From the NCBI GenBank assembly GCA_019428855.1, contig JAHYJV010000002.1, forward strand, positions 1,917-65,916: 64,000 nt of DNA. The letters run 5' to 3'. Under the pieces are notes generated by a model. That model was not told the origin of the DNA. It did not search any database and saw only the letters and a program-made list of their open reading frames with translations. Source of the DNA: Patescibacteria group bacterium (GTDB taxonomy: Bacteria; Patescibacteriota; Minisyncoccia; JAHIHE01; JAGLIN01). Numbering within the stretch: position 1 is the first letter of the stretch; every line of letters starts with the position of its first letter. Below, piece by piece: positions 2,702 through 58,160 of the stretch. Both the position numbers and the translations under genes were made by a program.

Positions 2702-2731
2702 TTATTTCTTTCTTGTCAATTCACAAATTTT

Positions 2732-2767
2732 AAGATAAACTAAAAGCATAAGTTTATCTTTTTTGTT
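2732..2767 (+). terminator. intrinsic terminator after the phosphoesterase gene
   Basis: Stem aagataaac (2732-2740) pairs with gtttatctt (2752-2760), followed by TTTTGTT. Confidence 0.6.
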
Positions 2768-2917
2768 AACTAATTTGCAAAAAAATAAGAAATGAAAGTA
2801 TGTTTAATTTCTATGGAGATAAAGTTGAGAACGAAGAAAAAAATACAGAAAAAACCACTCAAGGAAATGAACTCAACTAAGCTGAATAGAAAATTATACT
2901 CCACAAACAACCACGAA

Positions 2918-2969
2918 TTTACATATATCCTTTTTTCTCACGGCCGTGAGAAAAAAGGATATATGTAAA
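2918..2969. repeat. 52-nt perfect palindrome P1 (core TCTCACGGCCGTGAGA)
   Basis: tttacatatatccttttttctcacgg|ccgtgagaaaaaaggatatatgtaaa: 26-nt arms that are exact reverse complements. It shares the core with palindrome P2 at 3543-3582. Confidence 0.95.
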
Positions 2970-3016
2970 AAATAAATTAATAATCGATATAATTATAATA
3001 TTTAATAAAAAATATT

Positions 3017-3547
3017 ATGAAGTTACTAATTACTGACAAATTTTTACTAAATTTATATAGCTATACTGAAAAGCTAGATAAAACTTTTGATATTTTTGCA
3101 TATAAAACAATTCAAGAAGCCTACTGTCCGTCTCTTTATGACTTAAAAAAACAATACGAAAGAGAAAAGAACAAACAAATATTTAGTCAATTAATTTATC
3201 GTCTGAAAAAAAATGGGTATATCAAAATTACAAATTTAAAAAACAATAAAGGAGTCGTCTTGACCCAAAAAGGAGCTGAAAAAGTTTTAAGAGCTAAACT
3301 CAAGACGGAAAAGAAAAGGAAAAGAGCCGACAAAAAATGGCAAATGATAATTTTTGACATTCCTGAAGAAAAAAGATACCTAAGAGATTTACTTCGAGAG
3401 AAGCTTCGAGCACTAGAGTATCAAATGCTTCAGCAAAGTATCTGGGTTTGTCCATACGATGTTCAAAAAGAAACTGAGATTTTATTAAGAGAGCACTCTA
3501 TCGATCCATATGTGAAAATATTTTTAATAGAGGAAATAGAGTTATAA
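3017..3547 (+). CDS. winged-helix plus Cas2-like/PaaX-C-like domain protein (orphan; no CRISPR array nearby)
   Basis: 176 aa. The middle region 'FSQLIYRLKKNGYIKITN...VLTQKGAEKVL' looks like a wHTH. The C-terminal 'WQMIIFDIPEEKRYLRDLLREKLRALEYQMLQQSIWVCPYD' resembles the N-terminal ferredoxin-fold strand-helix of Cas2 and the PaaX C-terminal domain. The functional call rests on motif recall only. Confidence 0.55.
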   Translation: MKLLITDKFLLNLYSYTEKLDKTFDIFAYKTIQEAYCPSLYDLKKQYEREKNKQIFSQLIYRLKKNGYIKITNLKNNKGVVLTQKGAEKVLRAKLKTEKKRKRADKKWQMIIFDIPEEKRYLRDLLREKLRALEYQMLQQSIWVCPYDVQKETEILLREHSIDPYVKIFLIEEIEL

Positions 3548-3582
3548 CCTTTTTACTCACGGCCGTGAGTAAAAAGGTTATA
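3543..3582. repeat. 40-nt perfect palindrome P2 (core ACTCACGGCCGTGAGT)
   Basis: tataacctttttactcacgg|ccgtgagtaaaaaggttata: exact 20-nt arms. The left arm contains the TAA stop (3545-3547) of the preceding gene. P1 and P2 share CC-TTTTT(T/A)CTCACGGCCGTGAG(A/T)AAAAA-GG. Confidence 0.95.
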
Positions 3583-3611
3583 GTAAAAATCAATTAAAAT
3601 AACGAATAATT

Positions 3612-6600
3612 ATGGAAAAATATAATCACAAAAAAATTGAAAAAAAATGGCAAAATGTTTGGGATGAAAGTGAAATATATCAAGCCAAAGATTCATCAAA
3701 AAAACCGAAATATTATTGTCTGATTGAATTCCCTTATCCATCTGGCGCAGGACTTCATGTGGGACATCTTCGTTCTCATATCGCCATTGATATTGTCGCT
3801 CGCAAAAAAAGAATGGATGGGTTTAATGTGATGTATCCGATTGGATGGGATGCTTTTGGCTTACCAACCGAAAATTTTGCCATCAAAACAAAAACACATC
3901 CAAAAGTTGTAACAAAAAATAATATCAAAAACTATAATCGTCAAATCAAAAGCTATGGCCCAAGTTTTGATTGGTCAAGAGAAATCAATACTACTGACCC
4001 AGAATATTATAAATGGACCCAGTGGATTTTTTTGAAGTTATTTAATAGTTTTTATGATGAAAAGCTAGACAAAGCAAGATTAATTGAAGAACTGAAAGTG
4101 CCAAAGAATTTCAATGAATTTGAAAAAAAAAGATATATTGATAATCACAGACTTGCTTATGAAAAAGAGATGGCGATTAATTGGTGTCCCAGTTGTAAAA
4201 TTGGACTTGCCAACGAAGAAGTTGTCAATGGAAATTGCGAAAGATGTGGTGCCTTGGCCGAGAGAAAAGTGATGAGACAATGGATGCTTCGCATTACAAA
4301 ATATGCCGACCGCTTAATCAAGGATTTGAAGACAGTTGATTATTTGGAAAAAATTAAATCTCAACAAATTAATTGGATTGGAAAATCAGAAGGAGTAACT
4401 ATTAAGTTCAAAGTGAAAAGTGGAAAAATAAAAGATACGAATGACTGCATTGCCACATCGAAAAAAACTCCTCACGATAATAACGAGATTATTGAAGTTT
4501 TCACTACGCGTCCAGACACTTTATTCGGATGCACATATATAGTTCTTTCACCTGAACATCCTTTAATTGAAAAATATAAAAATCAAATAGAAAATTTTAA
4601 GGAGGTTGAAAAATATCAAGATAAAGCTAGCAATAAATCAGATTTGGAAAGAACGGATTTGGCCAAAGAAAAAACAGGAGTGGAACTGAAGGGAATCGAG
4701 GCTATCAATCCAGCAAACAATGAAGAAATTCCCATTTGGATTGCTGATTATGTTCTGGCTTCCTATGGTACTGGTGCGATTATGGCAGTTCCAGCACACG
4801 ATGAAAGAGATTTTGAGTTTGCAGAAAAGTTTGGTATTGCAATTAGGGATGTAGTCGCTCCATTTTTTCAGGCAGATATTGGAAATGAGAACGCCTTACG
4901 ACCTGACAAGAAAACAGTTCGCCGAAGACTAGTTACTGCTTTTGTAAAACATTGGAAAGAAGACAAATATCTTTGTCTTGATTGGAAGAAATTTAAGTGG
5001 CATACCCCAATTATTGGAGGGATTGAAGGGGGAGAAACTCCCGAAGAAGCAGGCTTGCGAGAGATCAGAGAAGAAACTGGTTTTCAAAATATGAAATTTG
5101 TGCATTATCTAGGAGGTGAGCTGCATAATTCTTTTTTTGCTAGACATAAAGATGAAAATCGATATTCAATTGAATATGGAGTATTATTTGAATTGATTGA
5201 TGATAAATGGGAAAAACCAAGTGAAGAAGAAATAAAAAATCATAAAGCTGTTTGGATTAATGCGAAGGAAATGGAAACTTTTTTGAATTTGGAAAGTAAA
5301 AAAATATTATGGCACCGATTGAATGGTAATTTTGAATGTTTTAAAGGAGACGGTGTTAATATAAACTCTGGTTTTTTGGACGGAATGGAAACTATTAAAG
5401 CGAAAAAAGAAATTTCCAATTGGCTCGTAAAAAATAAGCTTGGTCAAAAAGCAGTGAATTTCAAACTTCGCGATTGGATTTTTTCGCGCCAACACTATTG
5501 GGGTGAGCCAATCCCGATTATCAAATGCCGAGAGTGTGGCTTGAAAAAATTAAACATTAAAATGGAATTAAATTTTCGAGTAAATAAAGCTTGGAATCAA
5601 ATAATTGATAATAAAAAAACAATTGAAACTCGAGCACTAAATCCACAAGAAAAAGATAAATTCTTCGGCGATATCAAAGTTGGAGATTTAGTGCGGTTTA
5701 ATAACAAGAATACCCAGGAATTTGAAATTGTCAGAATCAACAAGGTCTATAATTTCAAAAACTTAAGCGAATTATTTGAAACGCAAAAAATAGTTAAAAA
5801 AATATTTACTGATGTAAAAATTAAAAATATATCAGAACTAAAAAAATGCTTTAGCTTTACGGAAGATTATCTAGACCGAATTGAAAAAAATGGTCTAGTT
5901 GGATGGGAATTTGAAAAGATAGACATTACTGAAAATATTTCTCTCTCAGAAAAAGAACTTCCACTGGAACTTCCTAATGTCAAAAATTACGAGCCAACGG
6001 AAACTGGAGAATCGCCACTAGCTAATATAAAAAAATGGGTTGAGATTAAATGTCCAATTTGTGGTGGCAATGCCAAAAGAGAAACAGACACCATGCCAAA
6101 TTGGGCTGGTTCAAGCTGGTATTTTTTGAGATACACAGATCCTGATAATTCAAAAGAATTTGCTTCACAAAAAAATTTACAGCAATGGATGCCAGTTGAT
6201 TTATATAACGGCGGAATGGAACATACCACTCTTCATCTTCTCTATTCTCGATTTTGGCATAAATTTTTATTTGACCTTGAATTTGTCCAGACTTCAGAGC
6301 CATATAAAATGCGTCGCTCGCACGGAATGGTTTTGGCAGAAGATGGTCAGAAGATGAGCAAATCGCGAGGAAACGTCGTCAATCCTGATGAAGTTATTGG
6401 CGAATATGGAGCAGACACTGTTAGATTATATGAAATGTTTATGGGTCCTTATAGCGATGCTATTCCCTGGAACACAACCAGTTTAATTGGTATGAATCGA
6501 TTTTTGCAAAGGATTTGGAATCTACAATCGAAAATTTCAAATACCAAATTACCAAAAAAAGAAACAATTCTGATTGCGACAAATAATCCCGGAAAATTAA

Positions 6601-7610
6601 AAGAACTAAAAAGACATTTTAAAAATTTCCAGATTATTTCTTTAAATGATATTGATAAATCTATTGAAGAACCAGAAGAAAATGAAAAAACATTTGCAGA
6701 TAATTCACTTCTCAAAGCAAGATATTATGCCCAGAAAACAGGCTATCTGACAGTTGCAGATGATAGTGGACTTTGCGTTAATGCACTTGATGGAAGACCA
6801 GGAGTCTTTTCAAGTCGCTATGCTGAGGGTAATGACAAGAAAGGTTGCGTAAAGCTTTTGAAAGAGTTGGAAGGTCTTTCCGACCGATCAGCACACTTTG
6901 AAGCTGTAGTGACGATATATGACTCCAAAAAGGATGAATATCATCAATTTGAGGGTCAGTGTGACGGTGAAATTTTAAGAAAATTCGAGGGAGATAGTGG
7001 GTTTGGATATGATCCAATTTTTATGCCAAATGGTTTTGCAAAATCCTTCGGGCAGTGTTCCATTGAGGAGAAATATTTATTTGATCACAGACAAAAAGCT
7101 ACAAAAAAACTAATCGCTTATCTTGAGAATAATTCGAATAATGATGAAAATAAAATCGAATCATTAATCCACAAAACCATCAAAAAAGTTTCAGAAGATA
7201 TTGATAACTTGAAGTTCAACACTGCCATTTCTCAACTAATGATTTTGGCTAATGAAATAGAAAAAGAAGATAAAATATCATCGGCCAACTTTAAAATATT
7301 TTTGAATTTGCTGTCCCCTTTTGTTCCGCACATCACGGAAGAAATCTGGAAAAATCTAGATGAGAGGCAAAGCATTCACTTGCAGACTTGGCCACAATTC
7401 AATCCACAATTTATCAAAGATACAGAAATAAATTTCGTCATTCAAATCAACGGAAAACTTCGCGATCAAATCATAGTCCCCACTGATATCTCAAAAGAAG
7501 AAGCAAAAAAACTCGCTCTGGAAAGCGAGAAAGTTCAAAAATGGGTTGCAGGAAAGGAAATTAGAAAAGTGTTTTTTGTGAAAGGGAGACTGGTTAATAT
7601 AGTTATCTAA
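3612..7610 (+). CDS. leuS: leucyl-tRNA synthetase with three nested extra domains (1332 aa)
   Basis: All LeuRS landmarks are present and in order: HIGH-type 'HVGH', Zn knuckle 'CPSCK...CERCG', CP1 editing motif 'TTRPDTLFG', 'AVPAHDERDFEFA', 'RDWIFSRQHYWGEPIP', 'KMSKSRGN', and anticodon-binding 'FNTAISQLM'. One uninterrupted frame. Confidence 0.95.
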   Translation: MEKYNHKKIEKKWQNVWDESEIYQAKDSSKKPKYYCLIEFPYPSGAGLHVGHLRSHIAIDIVARKKRMDGFNVMYPIGWDAFGLPTENFAIKTKTHPKVVTKNNIKNYNRQIKSYGPSFDWSREINTTDPEYYKWTQWIFLKLFNSFYDEKLDKARLIEELKVPKNFNEFEKKRYIDNHRLAYEKEMAINWCPSCKIGLANEEVVNGNCERCGALAERKVMRQWMLRITKYADRLIKDLKTVDYLEKIKSQQINWIGKSEGVTIKFKVKSGKIKDTNDCIATSKKTPHDNNEIIEVFTTRPDTLFGCTYIVLSPEHPLIEKYKNQIENFKEVEKYQDKASNKSDLERTDLAKEKTGVELKGIEAINPANNEEIPIWIADYVLASYGTGAIMAVPAHDERDFEFAEKFGIAIRDVVAPFFQADIGNENALRPDKKTVRRRLVTAFVKHWKEDKYLCLDWKKFKWHTPIIGGIEGGETPEEAGLREIREETGFQNMKFVHYLGGELHNSFFARHKDENRYSIEYGVLFELIDDKWEKPSEEEIKNHKAVWINAKEMETFLNLESKKILWHRLNGNFECFKGDGVNINSGFLDGMETIKAKKEISNWLVKNKLGQKAVNFKLRDWIFSRQHYWGEPIPIIKCRECGLKKLNIKMELNFRVNKAWNQIIDNKKTIETRALNPQEKDKFFGDIKVGDLVRFNNKNTQEFEIVRINKVYNFKNLSELFETQKIVKKIFTDVKIKNISELKKCFSFTEDYLDRIEKNGLVGWEFEKIDITENISLSEKELPLELPNVKNYEPTETGESPLANIKKWVEIKCPICGGNAKRETDTMPNWAGSSWYFLRYTDPDNSKEFASQKNLQQWMPVDLYNGGMEHTTLHLLYSRFWHKFLFDLEFVQTSEPYKMRRSHGMVLAEDGQKMSKSRGNVVNPDEVIGEYGADTVRLYEMFMGPYSDAIPWNTTSLIGMNRFLQRIWNLQSKISNTKLPKKETILIATNNPGKLKELKRHFKNFQIISLNDIDKSIEEPEENEKTFADNSLLKARYYAQKTGYLTVADDSGLCVNALDGRPGVFSSRYAEGNDKKGCVKLLKELEGLSDRSAHFEAVVTIYDSKKDEYHQFEGQCDGEILRKFEGDSGFGYDPIFMPNGFAKSFGQCSIEEKYLFDHRQKATKKLIAYLENNSNNDENKIESLIHKTIKKVSEDIDNLKFNTAISQLMILANEIEKEDKISSANFKIFLNLLSPFVPHITEEIWKNLDERQSIHLQTWPQFNPQFIKDTEINFVIQINGKLRDQIIVPTDISKEEAKKLALESEKVQKWVAGKEIRKVFFVKGRLVNIVI
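4854..5342 (+). other. Nudix hydrolase domain inserted in LeuRS (about aa 415-577)
   Basis: Perfect Nudix box GX5EX7REUXEEXGU: 'GGIEGGETPEEAGLREIREETGF' (aa 469-491, nt 5016-5084). It lies between 'ERDFEFAEKFGIAIRDV' and 'GVNINSGFLDG', which are contiguous in ordinary bacterial LeuRS. Confidence 0.8.
5541..5927 (+). other. ASCH/PUA-like domain inserted in LeuRS (about aa 644-772)
   Basis: 'WNQIIDNKKTIETRALNPQEKDKFFGDIKVGDLVRFNN...EFEIVRINKV' matches the ASCH pattern (G-K-K-T-hEhR ... hKhGD). It lies between 'GEPIPIIKCRECG' and 'ELPLELPNV'. Assigned by motif recall; weaker than the other two. Confidence 0.5.
6561..7127 (+). other. RdgB/Ham1 (ITPase) domain inserted in LeuRS (about aa 984-1172)
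   Basis: 'ILIATNNPGKLKEL', 'EENEKTFADNSLLKARYYA', 'VADDSGLCVNALDGRPGVFSSRYA', 'GFGYDPIF' and 'FDHRQKA' align along the whole length with E. coli RdgB motifs (ATGNxGKxxE, ExGxTFxENAxxKA, ADDSGLxVxxLxGxPGxYSARY, GFGYDPxF, SHRxxA). Confidence 0.85.
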
Positions 7611-7636
7611 ATATTAAAATATAATTTACACAAAAT

Positions 7637-7669
7637 AAAATCGAGGATTAAATAATCTTCGATTTTATT
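7637..7669 (+). terminator. intrinsic terminator after leuS
   Basis: aaaatcgagga (7637-7647) pairs with tcttcgatttt (7656-7666), with one G.U, followed by ATT. Confidence 0.55.
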
Positions 7670-10547: not shown

Positions 10548-11654
10548 CTAAAAATATTTATGAGCAGATTTAATACATTCAGCGATTAAGTTAGCACATT
10601 GTTTGAGATCTTTCAAATCAAGAACTTCGACTGGAGAATGTATATATCTAGTAGCAACGCAAAGTCCGCCAGAAGGTATCCCTTCTTTGGTCATGTTTAT
10701 AATCGCCGCGTCGGTCATTCCTCCTTCAGTAACACTTAGCTGATATGGAATTTTGGCATTTTCAGACGTTTCTTTCATCCATTCTAGAACTGATTGTGAA
10801 ACCACAATACCCACCCCTTGAGCATCGCTTACTGTAATCGACGGACCTTCTCCAATCGAAAGCGAAGATTGTTTCTTTTCCACGCCAGGATGATCTCCGG
10901 GTATATTCACATCAGTTGCAATAGCGACATCTGGATTCAAGCTATATGCTGAAGTTCTCGCTCCTTTGAGGCCTACTTCTTCTTGAACTGTACCGACAAA
11001 ATGAACTTTTGCTTTTACTTTACTTTTACTTATAAGTCTTGCAGCTTCAATCATCATTACAATTCCAGCGCGATTATCAAACGCTTTTCCAGTAACCATA
11101 TCCCCTGCTAATGATTCAAATTTTCGATCCAAAGTTATCGTATCACCAACTCGAACTCCAATTTTTTCAGCATCTTTTTTGTCATTTGCTCCAATATCGA
11201 GATACATATCTCCAATTGAAATGACTTTTTTTGATTCCTCTGCTTTCATAATATGAGGAGGTTTTGAACCCACAACGCCTATAATTGATTTATTTTTGGT
11301 ATGAATAAGAACCCTTTGATTCAAGAGCGTTTGATCGAACCATCCACCAGATTTTGAAAAATATATAAAACCATTGTCGTCAATATATTTTACCATAAAT
11401 CCAATTTCATCCATATGAGCTGCAATCATAACCACCGGACCATCTCCATTTTTGGTAGCGATTAAATTACCAAGCTTGTCCGTGTAAACTTCATCAACAT
11501 AAGGACTTATCTCTTTTTCTAAAATAGCCCTTACTTTTTTCTCATGTCCTGAAATTCCATGAGCATTAGAAAGTTTTTCCAATAAATTTTTGATTTCCAC
11601 TAAATTTTCCTTTTTTGGTACTGATTTTGCTGTGTTCTTCTTTTTTGATTCCAT
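10548..11654 (-). CDS. M42-family aminopeptidase (FrvX/glutamyl aminopeptidase-like)
   Basis: 368 aa. 'ISGHEKKVR', 'AAHMDEIGF', 'KAFDNRAG', 'VQEEVGLKGA' and 'IHSPVE' are typical of M42 peptidases. Confidence 0.85.
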   Translation of the reverse strand: MESKKKNTAKSVPKKENLVEIKNLLEKLSNAHGISGHEKKVRAILEKEISPYVDEVYTDKLGNLIATKNGDGPVVMIAAHMDEIGFMVKYIDDNGFIYFSKSGGWFDQTLLNQRVLIHTKNKSIIGVVGSKPPHIMKAEESKKVISIGDMYLDIGANDKKDAEKIGVRVGDTITLDRKFESLAGDMVTGKAFDNRAGIVMMIEAARLISKSKVKAKVHFVGTVQEEVGLKGARTSAYSLNPDVAIATDVNIPGDHPGVEKKQSSLSIGEGPSITVSDAQGVGIVVSQSVLEWMKETSENAKIPYQLSVTEGGMTDAAIINMTKEGIPSGGLCVATRYIHSPVEVLDLKDLKQCANLIAECIKSAHKYF

Positions 11655-15020: not shown

Positions 15021-15049
15021 ATTATACTATTTTAAAAAAATATGGTCAA
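15021..15049 (-). promoter_or_regulatory. sigma70-type promoter for the 14993 operon (TTGACC-17-TATAAT)
   Basis: Reverse complement of ggtcaa (15044-15049) and attata (15021-15026), with an exact 17-nt spacer. It lies 28 nt upstream of the ATG at 14993. Confidence 0.65.
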
Positions 15050-15057
15050 TAAATCGA

Positions 15058-15108
15058 GGCTCTGCACTAATAACTGTGGTGGATAACTTAAGAAGTGGTA
15101 GAATAATA
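15058..15108 (-). repeat. promoter-proximal conserved module, copy A
   Basis: ggctctgcactaataactgtggtggataacttaagaagtggtagaataata. Starts exactly 8 nt from the -35 hexamer. Homology to copy C continues to about 15232. Confidence 0.9.
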
Positions 15109-15340
15109 TTTATAAATTAACAATTCACACTACTTCTCTGAAAAATGAGGTCAAAAAACTGTTTAATGATGTTCTTCCGAGTGAAGAAAGGAGCCGAGGA
15201 ATTCCTTTCAATCGGATATAAGTATCAAATCATTTAACTATGAAACCAAAATCCTCTTTTTGAGGCATGTGGTGAAATGACGCCATAGAAGGAATTAGTT
15301 TGTTGGTTAGATTAATATTTTCTTGACCTTTTTTATTTTT

Positions 15341-16041: not shown

Positions 16042-16161
16042 TCTCCGGCGATGACCTACTCTCCCAACCCCGTACGGGGCAAGTACCATCAGCGCTAATG
16101 AGCTTAACTTCTGAGTTCGGAATGGTATCAGGTGTAACATCACCGCTAAAATCACCAGAGA
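16042..16161 (-). rRNA. rrf: 5S rRNA
   Basis: Reverse complement contains 'CCTGATACCATTCCGAACTCAGAAGTTAAGC' and 'GGGAGAGTAGGTCATCGCCGGAGA'. The terminal helix pairs UCUCUGGUGAU with AUCGCCGGAGA. Confidence 0.9.
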
Positions 16162-16317
16162 ATTTGTATACTAAATTATAATAGTGTATATAAAATTTTC
16201 AATATGTCAAATATAAAATTTTTTACATTCAATTGAATTATATAAATAGTTTTACAAACATTAAATGCCAGTTAATCCTTTTATTGCATTTTAATTTAAA
16301 AATGCAATTACATTAAA

Positions 16318-19375
<3,058 letters not shown>

Positions 19376-19683
19376 TAATGTAAGATTAACTAGCAATTAA
19401 AATTTGCAATTTAATATTTTATAATATTTTTTACCTATTTATATATATTCAATTGTCAATGATCATTCAAATCTTATATCTTCCGTTCATCTTCTAAATA
19501 TTAGAAAATGAATTAAAACTATAATTTTAAAAAATAAAACCGCCTTGTTCAGAGGCGATTTTAATCTTGTGATAATCACAAAATTAACCGCCATTTAATC
19601 ACTTAAATTCAATTCCATTTTTTTCATAACTTTATATTATGAATTAATGATTTTGCAAAATTAAAACTAAACATTACTTACAT

Positions 19684-19711
19684 AGAATAGCACAACTAAT
19701 AATACTGTCAA
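19684..19711 (-). promoter_or_regulatory. candidate promoter of the 23S-5S unit (TTGACA-16-TATTCT)
   Basis: Reverse complement of tgtcaa (19706-19711) and agaata (19684-19689). Same architecture and the same GTGCTATT -10 context as the 16S P2 promoter. Confidence 0.5.
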
Positions 19712-19782
19712 GTCTTAATTAATAATGCTTAAAACATAGAAAAAAAATTATTTTTTCAAGGAAGATTATACCTATTTATTGC

Positions 19783-19821
19783 TAAAATAAAAGAAGATAG
19801 ATAAGATTGATCTATCTTCTT
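19783..19821 (-). terminator. intrinsic terminator after the 227-aa membrane-protein gene
   Basis: Perfect 12-bp stem aagaagatagat (19791-19802) / atctatcttctt (19810-19821), followed on the minus strand by TTATTTTA. Confidence 0.7.
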
Positions 19822-19857
19822 TTTAGTGCTGTTAGACAAGTATTGAACAACAAGTTT

Positions 19858-20541
19858 CTATTTTAACTTATCTTTCAATTCATCCAGTAGTTCTTTCGCA
19901 TGGTATTGTCCACCCAATCCAAATGCAAGTCCTCCTGCAATGGCAAGCATTAAAGATAAACCACCTGCAAAAATCTTAATAATTTCCATACCAATTTGAA
20001 TTTGCTCCAGTACAACTAAGAATGTAAATATAATAATCGTCCACTTAAATAAAAATGCAACCAAATGATACATTCGAATTCCACTAGCTTTTGCCAGACC
20101 GTCTGTTGATTCGTACACAAGTTGAGAAATAATAACACCAATTGTCAAGCTAATAATCGCTAGAAATAAACTAGGTAGATAACTTAATATTTGTGCTAGA
20201 AATTCCGATACTTGTGGGATATCCATTATATCTACTACAAACTTTAAAGTAAATATCAGAATAAACCATTTAACCAACCAGCCTACGAGTTTCGAAATCG
20301 AAAAATTTATATTAATTCTTTTAAAACATTTTTTTATCCCAGCTTTTTCCAGCGATTTATCAATACTCATTTTTTCAAAAAGAATTTTTGTTAATTTTTC
20401 AAGTTCAACTGCAAACATCAAACCAATGAAGAAAACAAAGACTGCCGAAAAGATAGAACCCTCTATAAGAAATGCTTGATAAAAATTATAGATCGAACTT
20501 GGAATCTCGTAATAAACATCTGTAAATAAATTATATTGCAT
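19858..20541 (-). CDS. multi-pass membrane protein with repeated TM-helix motifs (MscS-associated 'conserved TM helix'-like)
   Basis: 227 aa, at least 4 TM segments with a repeated pattern, and a C-terminal 'GLGGQYHAKELLDELK'. The functional call is tentative. Confidence 0.6.
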   Translation of the reverse strand: MQYNLFTDVYYEIPSSIYNFYQAFLIEGSIFSAVFVFFIGLMFAVELEKLTKILFEKMSIDKSLEKAGIKKCFKRININFSISKLVGWLVKWFILIFTLKFVVDIMDIPQVSEFLAQILSYLPSLFLAIISLTIGVIISQLVYESTDGLAKASGIRMYHLVAFLFKWTIIIFTFLVVLEQIQIGMEIIKIFAGGLSLMLAIAGGLAFGLGGQYHAKELLDELKDKLK

Positions 20542-20785
20542 TTATAACACCCCCTTTCTTTTTATTTTTTTAATTAAATGTTATTAATTTTTTAAGAAAT
20601 TTATGAAAAAATATTATCTAAAATTGTTTTTATGTCTATGATAATATTATAACACATATTAATTATACTGCAATTTTATTTCGCAAGTTCTATATTGATT
20701 TTAAAATTATATTTTTTAGAAATAAAATCTTAGAAAGTTATCTCTGAGATTTTATTTGTGAACATTAAATTTTGGTGGTGTTTGT

Positions 20786-21191
20786 TTGAAAAAGTCAGAA
20801 CTCATTTTGAACAAAATACAGATTATGCTTGTTCAGAATAGAAAACCCCGCAAAAAGCGAGGGGCAAAAAATTTTCAATATTTAGGTTTTGCTACTTGTG
20901 GGATTTGTGGCTATGCCATAACCGCCGAAAGACATATTAAAAAAAGTGGTTTGAAATTTGTTTATTATTATTGCAACCACAAAAGCAAAACTGTTGCTCG
21001 CACTGAAAATTGTTTTTTTGCGGGAAGAAGCTTTAACCGAACAAGTAAAAAACCTTTGTCAAAAAGTTTCTTTGCCTGATGAGTGGTGGAAAAGAAAACA
21101 ATTGAGGAAAAATTATCGGATTTTGAACGAAAAGGTAATCATTGGCTCGAACTCATGCGAAACTGAATTATTGAAGCCAACCAAGCCGTAA
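20786..21191 (+). pseudogene. frameshifted fragment of a large serine recombinase (zinc-ribbon region only)
   Basis: Frame A: 'FATCGICGYAITAERHIKKSGLKFVYYYCNHKSK', the recombinase Zn-ribbon pattern CGxCG...YYxC. It continues only in another frame as 'FLREEALTEQVKNLCQKVSLPDEW'. The N-terminal resolvase catalytic domain is absent. Confidence 0.6.
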
Positions 21192-21199
21192 ATCTCTAT

Positions 21200-21239
21200 A
21201 AACAAGAAAATCCCTCAAGGATGAGAGATTTTCTTGTTT
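21200..21239 (-). terminator. hairpin downstream of tRNA-Ala (candidate terminator)
   Basis: aaacaagaaaatc (21200-21212) pairs with gattttcttgttt (21227-21239). The T-rich segment is inside the stem, so strength is uncertain. Confidence 0.35.
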
Positions 21240-21367
21240 CCATCGGCTCGAACCGTAGAATTTTGGCGGGAATTATTTCGGCGGAATTCAAAACCCCCTG
21301 GAATTTCTTGGAGAAAACCAATGCCGAGGGGCGAAGCCCCGAGGCAACTTCTTTAACAAATTCGGAC

Positions 21368-21444
21368 TGGTGGACCCAACAGGATTCGAACCTGCGACCC
21401 CCTGCTTGCAAAGCAGGTGCTCTAGCCAACTGAGCTATGGGCCC
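21368..21444 (-). tRNA. tRNA-Ala (UGC), CCA encoded
   Basis: Reverse complement GGGCCCATAGCTCAGTTGGCTAGAGCACCTGCTTTGCAAGCAGGGGGTCGCAGGTTCGAATCCTGTTGGGTCCACCA. Cloverleaf fits, with anticodon loop TTTGCAA. Confidence 0.95.
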
Positions 21445-21555
21445 ATAATTTTTTTCGTTTTATATAATAATATTTGAACATCTTATACTGCTTGATTATT
21501 ATATCAAAATCAACTGTATTCGACTATATCTTAAATATATAAAAGCTAAAACGAG

Positions 21556-21629
21556 TGGGCGTACCTGGACTCGAACCAGGGACCTTTACATTATCAGTGT
21601 AACGCTCTAACCAGCTGAGCTATACGCCC
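21556..21629 (-). tRNA. tRNA-Ile (GAU)
   Basis: Reverse complement GGGCGTATAGCTCAGCTGGTTAGAGCGTTACACTGATAATGTAAAGGTCCCTGGTTCGAGTCCAGGTACGCCCA. Anticodon loop CTGATAA. No encoded CCA. Confidence 0.95.
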
Positions 21630-21954
21630 GGATGCTAATTTCTAATTTTAAATCAATTTCTAATAACTGAATTTTTTATATTAAAAATTAAGACATTAGT
21701 TAAAAATAATGAAATTCACTTCTCTATTATAACAAAAATCGCATCTTATGCAATACTATTGTATAGATGCGATTTTTGTTTTCACTTTTATTACAAACTT
21801 TGTGCAATTGTCCTGAAGGCAATTTTGTTCCTATCTACTCGAAAATAGATAAGCCTGTATTACCAACAGCCAAACATGTAGATGATATTAAAATCATTCT
21901 ACAGACGATCTCGGTGAGTGTATTTCTTTAGACTAAAGAAATAACTTTCTCCCT

Positions 21955-23421
<1,467 letters not shown>

Positions 23422-23636
23422 AATGATAATCTATTCATTGAAGAATAATTTATCTCAAAATATAATAAAGCATAATCAATGGACATAAAAATGTCAATGT
23501 AATTATGCATAAAAGTTTTATCTTGGAATTGTCTATAACCGGATAAGTTTATAGACTCGCAGGACAACTGCACAAAGTTTATATAATTGTGTGTGATTTA
23601 TATTTAATTGTTAATGAACAATTTAATTACTAAGTC

Positions 23637-23740: not shown

Positions 23741-23769
23741 ATACTATAGCAATAAATGATTTGTGTCAA
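23741..23769 (-). promoter_or_regulatory. candidate 16S promoter P1 (TTGACA-17-TAGTAT) with upstream conserved module
   Basis: Reverse complement of tgtcaa (23764-23769) and atacta (23741-23746), with an exact 17-nt spacer. Confidence 0.5.
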
Positions 23770-23777
23770 ATTAGGTG

Positions 23778-23829
23778 GGCTCTACACTAATAACTGCGGT
23801 GAAGAACTAAAAAAAATTATTGGATTATA
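23778..23829 (-). repeat. promoter-proximal conserved module, copy B (most diverged)
   Basis: ggctctacactaataactgcggtgaagaactaaaaaaaattattggattata. The first 24 nt are nearly identical to the other copies. Starts 8 nt from the -35 hexamer. Confidence 0.8.
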
Positions 23830-40178: not shown

Positions 40179-40207
40179 ATATTAATCCATATAACAATAA
40201 ATGTCAA
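40179..40207 (-). promoter_or_regulatory. rpsP operon promoter (TTGACA-17-TAATAT)
   Basis: Reverse complement of tgtcaa (40202-40207) and atatta (40179-40184), with an exact 17-nt spacer. It lies 38 nt upstream of the rpsP ATG. Confidence 0.65.
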
Positions 40208-40215
40208 TAAATTGT

Positions 40216-40266
40216 GGCTCTACACTAATAACTGTGGTGGATAACCAAAGAAGTGATAGAATTATA
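40216..40266 (-). repeat. promoter-proximal conserved module, copy C
   Basis: ggctctacactaataactgtggtggataaccaaagaagtgatagaattata. 100% identical to copy D. Starts 8 nt from the -35 hexamer. The extended element, shared with copy A, runs to about 40395. Confidence 0.95.
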
Positions 40267-40338
40267 TGGAAGAATTAACAATTCACACCACTCCTATTAA
40301 AATGATATTAAAAAAAAACTGTTTTAAGCTATCATCCA

Positions 40339-43874: not shown

Positions 43875-43903
43875 TTTATATCACAATTTTTCTTATTTTA
43901 CAA
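43875..43903 (-). promoter_or_regulatory. ndk promoter (TTGTAA-17-TATAAA)
   Basis: Reverse complement of ttacaa (43898-43903) and tttata (43875-43880), with an exact 17-nt spacer. Confidence 0.5.
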
Positions 43904-43911
43904 TAAATTGT

Positions 43912-43962
43912 GGCTCTACACTAATAACTGTGGTGGATAACCAAAGAAGTGATAGAATTATA
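43912..43962 (-). repeat. promoter-proximal conserved module, copy D
   Basis: Identical to copy C over 62 nt (43900-43962 region, caataaattgtggctc...gaattata). Starts 8 nt from the -35 hexamer. Confidence 0.95.
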
Positions 43963-44000
43963 CTTAAAATAATATCAAAATGTTTATATTTGTCATTTCG

Positions 44001-58030: not shown

Positions 58031-58059
58031 AGAATACAACTTTTTTAACAACTAGTCAA
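58031..58059 (-). promoter_or_regulatory. lepB operon promoter (TTGACT-17-TATTCT)
   Basis: Reverse complement of agtcaa (58054-58059) and agaata (58031-58036), with an exact 17-nt spacer. It lies 43 nt upstream of the lepB ATG. Confidence 0.55.
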
Positions 58060-58067
58060 ACAAGACA

Positions 58068-58118
58068 GGCTCTACACTAATTAGTGTGGTGGATAACTAA
58101 TAAAGTGGTAAAATTATA
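58068..58118 (-). repeat. promoter-proximal conserved module, copy E
   Basis: ggctctacactaattagtgtggtggataactaataaagtggtaaaattata. Contains the perfect 14-bp palindrome ACACTAATTAGTGT. Starts 8 nt from the -35 hexamer. Confidence 0.9.
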
Positions 58119-58160
58119 TTGATAAATTATTTTTGAATTACGAAATTCAAAATACTTATC

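Follow-up and report, generated by a model that had tools for sequence, protein, structure and literature searches.

Patescibacteria have tiny genomes with few recognisable regulators. In one of them a small gene is bracketed by two related, long and perfect palindromes, and the question that this locus raises is what the palindromes do and whether the encoded protein acts on them. Here we analyse the locus in a 64,000-nucleotide (nt) stretch of Patescibacteria group bacterium (assembly GCA_019428855.1, contig JAHYJV010000002.1, positions 1,917–65,916; hereafter the window), together with its relatives, all of the data being metagenome-assembled genomes. The gene encodes a protein of 176 amino acids (aa), and its palindromes, P1 upstream and P2 over the stop codon, are listed with the other features in Table 1. 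Of 80 related loci, some two thirds to three quarters have the same layout, and two residues of the protein covary with palindrome bases. On balance it is probable that the gene encodes a homodimeric DNA-binding protein that would bind both flanking palindromes and repress its own promoter. We describe the locus as a minimal PaaX-type gene for a winged-helix protein with a Cas2 fold, with cognate palindromes on both sides, which forms a discrete evolving cassette and is probably autoregulated.

Architecture of the locus and its family

The sequence bears out the anatomy given in the original prediction, which was made from the letters of the window. P1 is a 52-nt perfect palindrome that ends 47 nt before the ATG, and P2 is a 40-nt perfect palindrome that contains the TAA stop codon (3545–3547) and ends 29 nt before the start of leuS. 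The window contains 78 inverted repeats, and among them these two alone are both long and perfect. They share the core CCTTTTT(T/A)CTCACGGCCGTGAG(A/T)AAAAAGG and, read as direct repeats, are 85% identical over 47 nt and lie 619 nt apart. As had been claimed, the core has no further copy in the 64 kb: even with up to three mismatches allowed, CTCACGGCCGTGAG matches at P1 and P2 and at no other place (chance expectation, 0.25). Single-strand folding gave −22.9 kcal/mol for P1 (z = −12.3 against shuffles) and −16.2 kcal/mol for P2 (z = −8.9). On the plus strand, no T-run lies 3′ of either palindrome, as the GC-rich hairpin plus U-run of an intrinsic terminator would demand; a terminator scan flagged P2 alone, in the minus-strand reading and with a weak tail, consistent with the earlier view that the two are not typical intrinsic terminators. 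An Rfam search of the palindromes returned no family at threshold.

The protein begins with N-terminal helices, followed by a winged helix (about residues 38–100) and a Cas2-like β-α-β-β-α-β domain (about residues 105–176). Residues 102–172 match PF20803 (PaaX_M/Cas2-like) with an E-value of 2.3e-21 and 76 bits against a cut-off of 24. The Cas2 families stayed under their thresholds (PF09827, E = 7e-4 and 20.2 bits against 23.8; TIGR01573, 22.9 bits against 24.5), and the PaaX family TIGR02277 matched residues 53–170 with 37.6 bits against a cut-off of 264.55. The PaaX_C domain has no Pfam match, the protein stopping at residue 176. A fold search with the AlphaFold model (pLDDT 72.6) returned, as top matches, Cas2 proteins (r.m.s.d. 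2.3–2.7 Å over 68–75 aligned columns) and Escherichia coli PaaX (8a39), and also the PaaX-family protein Rv0674 (PDB 3kfw). The protein is a truncated PaaX type that lacks PaaX_C and combines a winged helix with a Cas2-like domain, much as had been proposed, and two acidic residues of the latter domain, D114 and E117, are invariant. Pfam, NCBIfam and PADLOC gave PaaX_M and Cas2-like matches only, with no known transposase, recombinase or HUH domain in the protein; a role as a defence system was rejected, PADLOC yielding just weak Cas2 matches for it. The expected lack of a CRISPR context holds: no tandem or CRISPR-like array was found in the window, and no Cas family is among the 25 of 49 matched PADLOC families listed for 46 of its open reading frames (ORFs).

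The gene had been taken for an orphan, wrongly, as it belongs to a large and highly conserved family. A database search found 261 relatives; the matches listed all come from Patescibacteria metagenome-assembled genomes, are 56–82% identical and, with few exceptions, have a length of exactly 176 aa. An exact-sequence look-up with the protein of the window matched no contig. A profile search of 1.84 billion representatives gave 2,029 clusters (50% identity) at E ≤ 1e-10, mostly of 170–190 aa. The family is uncharacterised and often present in several copies per genome, three paralogs being frequent among species representatives (JAGLOZ, DAOWDU, CAYPQL and DASWIZ). The name 'Cas2' in the database record for one relative, P0100, looks like an over-annotation. 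Library searches on PaaX (in Patescibacteria, its Cas2-like domain, its structure and its palindromic operators) and on palindromes of the Candidate Phyla Radiation gave no description of this architecture.

In the first three homologous loci, one of which lies between PilD and LigA instead of TatD and leuS, a palindrome upstream of the gene and another on its stop codon were present in 3/3. A survey of 80 loci from species-representative genomes found palindromes centred on CGGCCG or CGATCG with arms of 17–27 nt, the centre of the upstream one usually lying 55–110 nt before the ATG and, in close relatives, that of the downstream one 12–30 nt past the stop. The arms are locus-specific: they differ between paralogs of one genome, and P1 resembles P2 within a locus. 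A strict scan detected at least one flanking palindrome in 32 of 58 testable loci and both in 18, against a background of 7 in 2,090 control windows, which amounts to an enrichment of about 100-fold beside the gene. Under a looser criterion, full-length homologs had at least one flanking palindrome centred on CG[GA][CT]CG in 38 of 61 loci and both in 24, and with off-centre variants (such as CGGTCG) included the count rises, in our reading, to about 45 of 57. The co-occurrence of gene and hairpins in relatives, which the original prediction had proposed to look for, is seen in 38/61 loci but is not complete, since palindromes without the gene (hereafter solos) and palindrome-free family members both exist.

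Covariation of protein and palindromes, and promoter geometry

When the columns of the protein alignment were screened by mutual information against the positions of the arms, a single pair stood out, residue 140 and the base beside the dyad. Q140 goes with a CGGCCG centre in 20/20 cases and K or R at this position with CGATCG in 27/27. On a simple neighbour-joining protein tree, the centre type switches at least eight independent times, residue 140 switching each time, and all 46 taxa are consistent. Off-type centres fit the same rule, a basic residue 140 pairing with A/T centres (K/R140 with CGGTCG/CGACCG, CAATTG and GCGATAGC), and more distant relatives with H or A at position 140 have a CGGCCG centre. 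A second association involves residue 62: the motif CCT[CT] stands about 12–15 nt from the centre in 8 of 12 loci with R62 and in 0 of 31 others (Fisher p = 3e-6, with no correction for phylogeny). In a clade of 80% identity, R, H or Y at residue 62 corresponds to GCCTC, GCATC or GTGTA, respectively. Beyond these two pairs, the residue–base pairs of the screen are at background. The covariation is not an artefact of overlap, because codons 140 and 62 lie hundreds of bases from the palindromes.

From this covariation, of residue 140 with the centre and of residue 62 with the arm, we infer that the protein specifically recognizes its palindromes, probably as a two-fold symmetric dimer on duplex DNA; the match between symmetric sites and a symmetric dimer counts in favour of this arrangement. 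The Cas2-like domain would make the dimer and set the tip of its hairpin, carrying residue 140, on the palindrome centre, and the two winged helices would read the arms about 12–15 bp on each side of the centre through residue 62. If so, the recognition rules (Q140 with GGCC, K/R140 with GATC and R62 with CCT[CT]) may define a set of orthogonal protein–site pairs, and a Cas2-like domain placed on the dyad of a DNA site would bear on the roles of the Cas2 fold before or outside CRISPR.

The region between P1 and the gene suggests what such binding would do. A predicted −10 box, TATAAT, lies 18 nt past P1 and is followed by a second one, and a 17-nt spacer would put the −35 region at about 2965–2970, on the outer right arm of P1. 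In a set of 36 palindromes upstream of family genes, hexamers that resemble a −10 box, often TGTATAAT, cluster between +35 and +44 relative to the centre (26 matches, against 1 on the mirror side), and in another subset of loci the −10 box lies within the right arm of the upstream palindrome. P1 thus has the geometry of a putative upstream operator, its right end covering the predicted −35 region of the gene's own promoter, and a site that abuts or overlaps its own predicted promoter is the mark of an autoregulated repressor. Protein bound at P1 would repress its own synthesis (negative autoregulation). P2 is a second putative site for the same protein and may form the 3′ boundary of the unit; it would most likely loop with P1 or block transcription between the unit and leuS. 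Of the functions offered in the original prediction, operators for autoregulation are the best supported, by the conserved offset of the −10 box at P1 and by the two covarying residues.

Several observations weigh against negative autoregulation as the whole explanation. The palindromes, perfect over 34–56 bp, are far longer than a winged-helix dimer needs, and an operator over a stop codon is unusual. No further site lies in the window, so that little would be regulated beyond the gene itself and perhaps leuS. About a quarter to a third of the family members are without recognisable palindromes, and solos stand between housekeeping genes, some of them convergent (L121), where no promoter is expected. 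Furthermore, differences between P1 and P2 are often mirrored in both arms: 30 compensated differences were counted against 44 single ones in 29 loci, where about 2–3 compensated ones would be expected by chance (our arithmetic from the observed rates), so that each palindrome keeps its own self-complementarity. One protein reading both sites is no explanation for the mirrored changes; they suggest that the palindromes form hairpins or cruciforms, or that template-switch correction, a process that acts on quasi-palindromes, is at work. Gain, loss, relocation, solos and strict self-complementarity are all left unexplained by simple repression and could indicate a new mobile or self-maintaining element.

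Solo palindromes, cassette behaviour and alternative explanations

The flanks of the 80 loci hold about 14 extra palindromes of this class per 1.1 Mb (about one per 80 kb), all of them intergenic; the 64-kb window has no solo. In some loci a third site stands past the downstream gene (L004 at 8806, after leuS, and L046 at 4211), and in L015 (2258–2338) a solo is accompanied by a relic of the 3′ end of the gene. Metagenome contigs were also scanned for the pattern TTTNCTCACGGCCGTGAGNAAA, without regard to the gene, which gave 28 loci, of which 27 are palindromes with arms of 17–25 nt; L118 falls under the 13-nt arm threshold. The family gene lies beside the palindrome in 3 of the 28, and the rest stand between housekeeping genes (such as rplJ, tig, pyrH and truB), those near contig ends not being classifiable as gene-free. 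In Ga0265316, the arms of the cassette at L107 match those of the solos L096, L099, L112 and L116; in Ga0180732, those of L097 match L101, L110 and L122. The suspicion that the palindromes might turn up at unrelated sites as generic elements is thus correct in that they occur away from the gene, but they are of locus-specific types that match cassettes and are no generic terminators. These genomes also hold a second palindrome family, GAAGCTTAGCTTC/GGAGGCTTAGCCTCC (L017 10600–10635, L026 1226–1259 and L039 2435–2464), which in L098, L108 and L113 lies to the left of the CGGCCG type, at times 25–30 nt from a solo of that type.

The protein could be an ordinary local or regulon transcription factor, with leuS (through P2) and the solos as its key targets and the flanking of its own gene incidental, an explanation that is possible though unlikely. 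It would account for the position of P2 just before leuS, with −10-like boxes (TATAGT and TAAAAT) at and after its right edge, for the pairing of the gene, in each synteny group, with a particular co-oriented downstream gene (leuS, ligA, FemAB or malic enzyme; 60 of 73 loci), for the third cognate sites in L004 and L046 and for the cassette-matching solos beside tig, pyrH, rplJ and truB. However, the downstream genes are functionally unrelated, and −10-like boxes after the downstream palindromes of the family are only weakly enriched. The solos between convergent genes and the lack of a further site in the 64 kb also speak against it, as do related genomes that run the same housekeeping genes without the cassette.

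The behaviour of the unit as a block bears on a different explanation. The cassette occupies the TatD–leuS gap of the window, L001, L004, L015, L023 and L031, and the PilD–LigA gap of L010, L013, L018 and L026. The protein tree conflicts with synteny: JAGLOZ has a cassette at PilD–LigA that shares 86% identity with the one at TatD–leuS in JAGLXN but only 67–71% with other cassettes at PilD–LigA. Empty sites exist at both places: the pilD–ligA gap of JAGLXN (L090) is 80 nt long and holds neither cassette nor palindrome, and the relatives L123–L128 have TatD and leuS without a cassette between them, which confirms the presence–absence variation before leuS that the original prediction had proposed to look for. 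Within a conserved gene string the position of the cassette shifts, and between cassettes at unrelated sites nucleotide homology is bounded on the two sides by the outer ends of P1 and P2. Judged from these comparisons, P1, promoter, gene and P2 would form a self-contained cassette; duplication, relocation and loss affect it as a whole, and the specificity of the paralogs diverges.

Two side observations concern the PilD–LigA region. In L010, about 150 nt of G+C-rich sequence between P2 and ligA (10580–10735), with short hairpins such as CCCTTTCGGG and CCGCTTGCGG, is not in the empty L090 and could represent a small element of its own or an RNA. A nucleotidyltransferase/HEPN-like toxin–antitoxin pair lies beside the prepilin peptidase gene in L092 (2108–2724) and L094 (739–1410), in the same variable region that receives cassettes.

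These features invite the view of a selfish or domesticated mobile element, similar to an insertion sequence (IS) or to REP/RAYT systems, in which the palindromes are the termini, the protein binds and cuts or recombines them, and the solos are non-autonomous copies or remnants; we consider this unlikely. The IS-like layout, with a promoter by the left site and the stop codon inside the right one, agrees with it, and so do the homology bounded by the outer palindrome ends, the conflict between tree and synteny, the empty sites and the shifting position. The solos whose arms match those of a cassette from their own metagenome, together with the gene relic in L015, would be its products; the invariant D114 and E117 make chemistry conceivable, and self-complementarity fits hairpin substrates. 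Nevertheless, the protein has no known transposase, recombinase or HUH domain, and the domain that it shares with PaaX belongs there to a repressor. Neither L010 against L090 nor the window against L123 shows a target-site duplication; in both comparisons the indels run past the palindromes (in L010 against L090 by about 40 nt to the left of P1 and about 150 nt to the right of P2) and the empty sites are without palindromes. Paralogs within a genome are 60–82% identical, so that no recent copies are seen, and positional orthologs persist across genera. A direct move between sister genomes was looked for, and the empty TatD–leuS site found in L123–L127 was not tied to the JAGLOZ organism. The density of solos is low, and no relative or copy was found in viral contigs, for which reason a phage origin was rejected. 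The mobile cassette suggested at the outset therefore stands as regards presence and absence of the block, the tree–synteny conflict and the solos, but not as regards an HUH or other transposase domain, a target duplication or a clean excision boundary.

Two specific rearrangements were also rejected. If a circular cassette recombined site-specifically with the centre of a solo, P1-left should pair with P2-right where the sites differ; this fails where it can be checked, because each palindrome is internally perfect. An invertible segment does not agree with the orientation of the gene, which is that of its neighbours in 60/73 and 64/70 loci. In its strongest form, the mobile explanation would make the protein the nuclease or recombinase of a new mobile unit that acts on terminal palindromes, perhaps on extruded hairpins cut at CGGCCG/CGATCG. 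This we regard as doubtful; were it true, the protein would do with a Cas2 fold what IS transposases or REP/RAYT systems do, seeding solos in the streamlined genomes of Patescibacteria.

It is highly unlikely that the palindromes serve as RNA hairpins, that is, by stabilising the 3′ end of the transcript or terminating it, for the gene and for transcripts from upstream, bound as RNA by a Cas2-like fold of the RNA-binding type. Self-complementarity that is kept even where P1 and P2 differ would fit such a role, as would the start of P2 at the stop codon, the usual position of a 3′ hairpin, the solos that sit tight against gene ends, and the palindrome of this class that follows leuS in L004, at a place taken in the window and in L015 by ordinary terminator hairpins. 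Apart from the missing U-run and Rfam match, however, arm mismatches of G·U-compatible type show no bias between the strands (27 against 25, with 39 of transversion type), which favours a feature of the DNA over selection for an RNA hairpin of the coding strand. P1 is placed ahead of the predicted promoter and transcription start. A single stem has one copy of each arm position, and the covariation fits a two-fold dimer on duplex DNA. The proposed sites of RNA stability or processing hence find no support, though such a role is still conceivable for P2. The idea of anti-Shine–Dalgarno mimicry, in which the left arm (CCTCTTT) would imitate the 3′ tail of 16S rRNA while the right arm would imitate a ribosome-binding site, was dropped because many loci are without the motif and the genes are without any Shine–Dalgarno sequence. 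Finally, generic extragenic repeats or terminators near which the gene merely tends to lie can be given almost no credence: pattern-first palindromes are more often interior (16) or near contig ends (9) than gene-adjacent (4), and other palindrome families occur in the same genomes, but the covariation of residues 140 and 62 with palindrome bases already contradicts this explanation, as do the roughly 100-fold enrichment beside the gene and arms that match between P1 and P2 within a locus and differ between paralogs.

Neighbouring features and comparison with known systems

The neighbours of the gene in the window are TatD, metallophosphoesterase and leuS; no phenylacetate genes are near it, and its neighbours elsewhere are ligA, FemAB and malic enzyme. 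In three genomes the TatD–leuS interval retains a small acidic ORF and the region preceding it, with the cassette or without it (Table 1; 4623–4733 in L004 and 5954–6058 in L123). The leucyl-tRNA synthetase (LeuRS) of the window carries two whole extra domains, and the sets differ between relatives: NUDIX only in L004 (5602–8718), NUDIX and Ham1 in L001 (11370–14987) and L123 (6232–10287), and PDDEXK_3 and Ser_hydrolase in L128 (6609–10472). LeuRS domain insertions therefore vary within the clade. The slot after leuS likewise holds different hairpins in different genomes: a terminator-like one in the window, the solo of CGGCCG type in L004 and, in L015 (13882–13923), an unrelated 42-nt perfect palindrome with the centre TTCGCGAA and flanking A and T runs. 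Elsewhere in the window, the intergenic GTCAATAAATTGTGGCTCTACACTAATAACTGTGGTGGATAAC repeats, one copy of which lies upstream of the 16S rRNA gene, look, from their positions, like shared promoter-proximal elements of minus-strand operons. In the rRNA operon, a gap of about 2 kb that includes an ORF separates the tRNAs from the 23S gene, whose match of 3,064 nt against a model of 2,925 suggests insertions.

Table 1. Positions of features in the 64,000-nt window
Feature	Positions	Strand	Description
P1	2918–2969	no strand	Arms TTTACATATATCCTTTTTTCTCACGG and CCGTGAGAAAAAAGGATATATGTAAA, 26+26 nt, 100% complementary, no spacer, centre CGGCCG; putative operator
Predicted −10, TATAAT	2988–2993	+	Read from sequence
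Second TATAAT	2994–2999	+	Read from sequence
Gene for the 176-aa protein	3017–3547	+	ORF; Pfam, NCBIfam, structure model, fold search
Arg62 codon	3200–3202	+	C-terminal end of the recognition helix
Gln140 codon	3434–3436	+	β-hairpin tip between strands 136–139 and 142–145 of the Cas2-like domain (model)
P2	3543–3582	no strand	Arms TATAACCTTTTTACTCACGG and CCGTGAGTAAAAAGGTTATA, 20+20 nt, perfect; second putative site
−10-like TATAGT	3579–3584		Right edge of P2
−10-like TAAAAT	3595–3600		Just past P2
leuS	3612–7610	+	LeuRS of 1,332 aa; extra domains NUDIX (462–561) and Ham1/ITPase (986–1169)
Conserved upstream region	2709–2871		Region of the small acidic ORF
Small acidic ORF	2800–2880	+	MFNFYGDKVENEEKNTEKTTQGNELN
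58-aa ORF	2792–2968		Crosses P1; probably spurious
Hairpin with T-run	2732–2766		Canonical; terminator of the upstream metallophosphoesterase gene itself
Hairpin with T-run	7634–7669		Terminator-like, after leuS
GTCAATAAATTGTGGCTCTACACTAATAACTGTGGTGGATAAC... repeats	15045–15144, 23765–23814, 40203–40302, 43899–43998, 58055–58154		Five intergenic copies of 50–100 nt
rRNA operon	16043–23423	−	
16S rRNA	21957–23423	−	
Two tRNAs	21371–21629	−	
ORF	19858–20538		In the gap between the tRNAs and 23S
23S rRNA	16313–19376	−	
5S rRNA	16043–16159	−	

The locus falls outside the PaaX equivalog, Cas2, REP/RAYT and IS200/IS605, because each of these groups has a defining feature that the locus lacks. PaaX is a DNA-binding repressor that controls phenylacetate catabolism genes and responds to phenylacetyl-CoA, and the PaaX repressors (E. 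coli, 8a39; Rv0674, 3kfw) have the same N-terminal winged helix and central Cas2-like domain as the protein of the window. However, the latter has 176 aa, against about 280–305, and lacks PaaX_C, and its family differs in the 34–56-bp perfect palindromes that flank its own gene and in its many paralogs with private sites. With Cas2 it has in common the ferredoxin-like β-α-β-β-α-β fold, and its motif FDI...R...Q.S.W resembles the YDI...Q.SVF of Cas2, whereas its Cas2-like domain is fused to a winged helix, scores under the Cas2 thresholds and has no cas1 or array in the window.

Similar to REP/RAYT systems (PMC3116915, PMC3337134, PMC3733652), the locus consists of a single gene between cognate extragenic palindromes, with paralog-specific palindrome types and mostly vertical inheritance; the intergenic solos near gene ends may correspond to the dispersed copies of those systems. 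It departs from them in that the protein lacks an HUH/Y1 transposase domain, in that the palindromes are perfect and spacerless with a CGGCCG/CGATCG centre instead of a GTAG or CGTC tag, and in their low copy number, the 64 kb having none beyond P1 and P2 and the related loci roughly one solo in every 80 kb. IS200/IS605 elements encode the HUH protein TnpA and have differing, imperfect subterminal hairpins, whereas the unit described here has no TnpA and near-identical, perfect ends.

IS elements in general have a promoter at the left end and a stop codon in the right end, and their product recognises both ends. Those with terminal inverted repeats resemble the cassette in having a gene between two sites, solo copies and empty sites; the cassette family differs in having no known transposase chemistry, target-site duplications or identical copies, and its positions are stable across genera. 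A further parallel is RTP of Bacillus subtilis, a small winged-helix dimer on inverted-repeat Ter sites, one of which lies beside its own gene and autoregulates it, with a handful of further sites elsewhere. RTP is without a Cas2-like domain and has one gene per genome, and the Ter sites are asymmetric and clustered at the terminus, whereas the family described here combines a Cas2-like domain with several paralogs, each with private sites.

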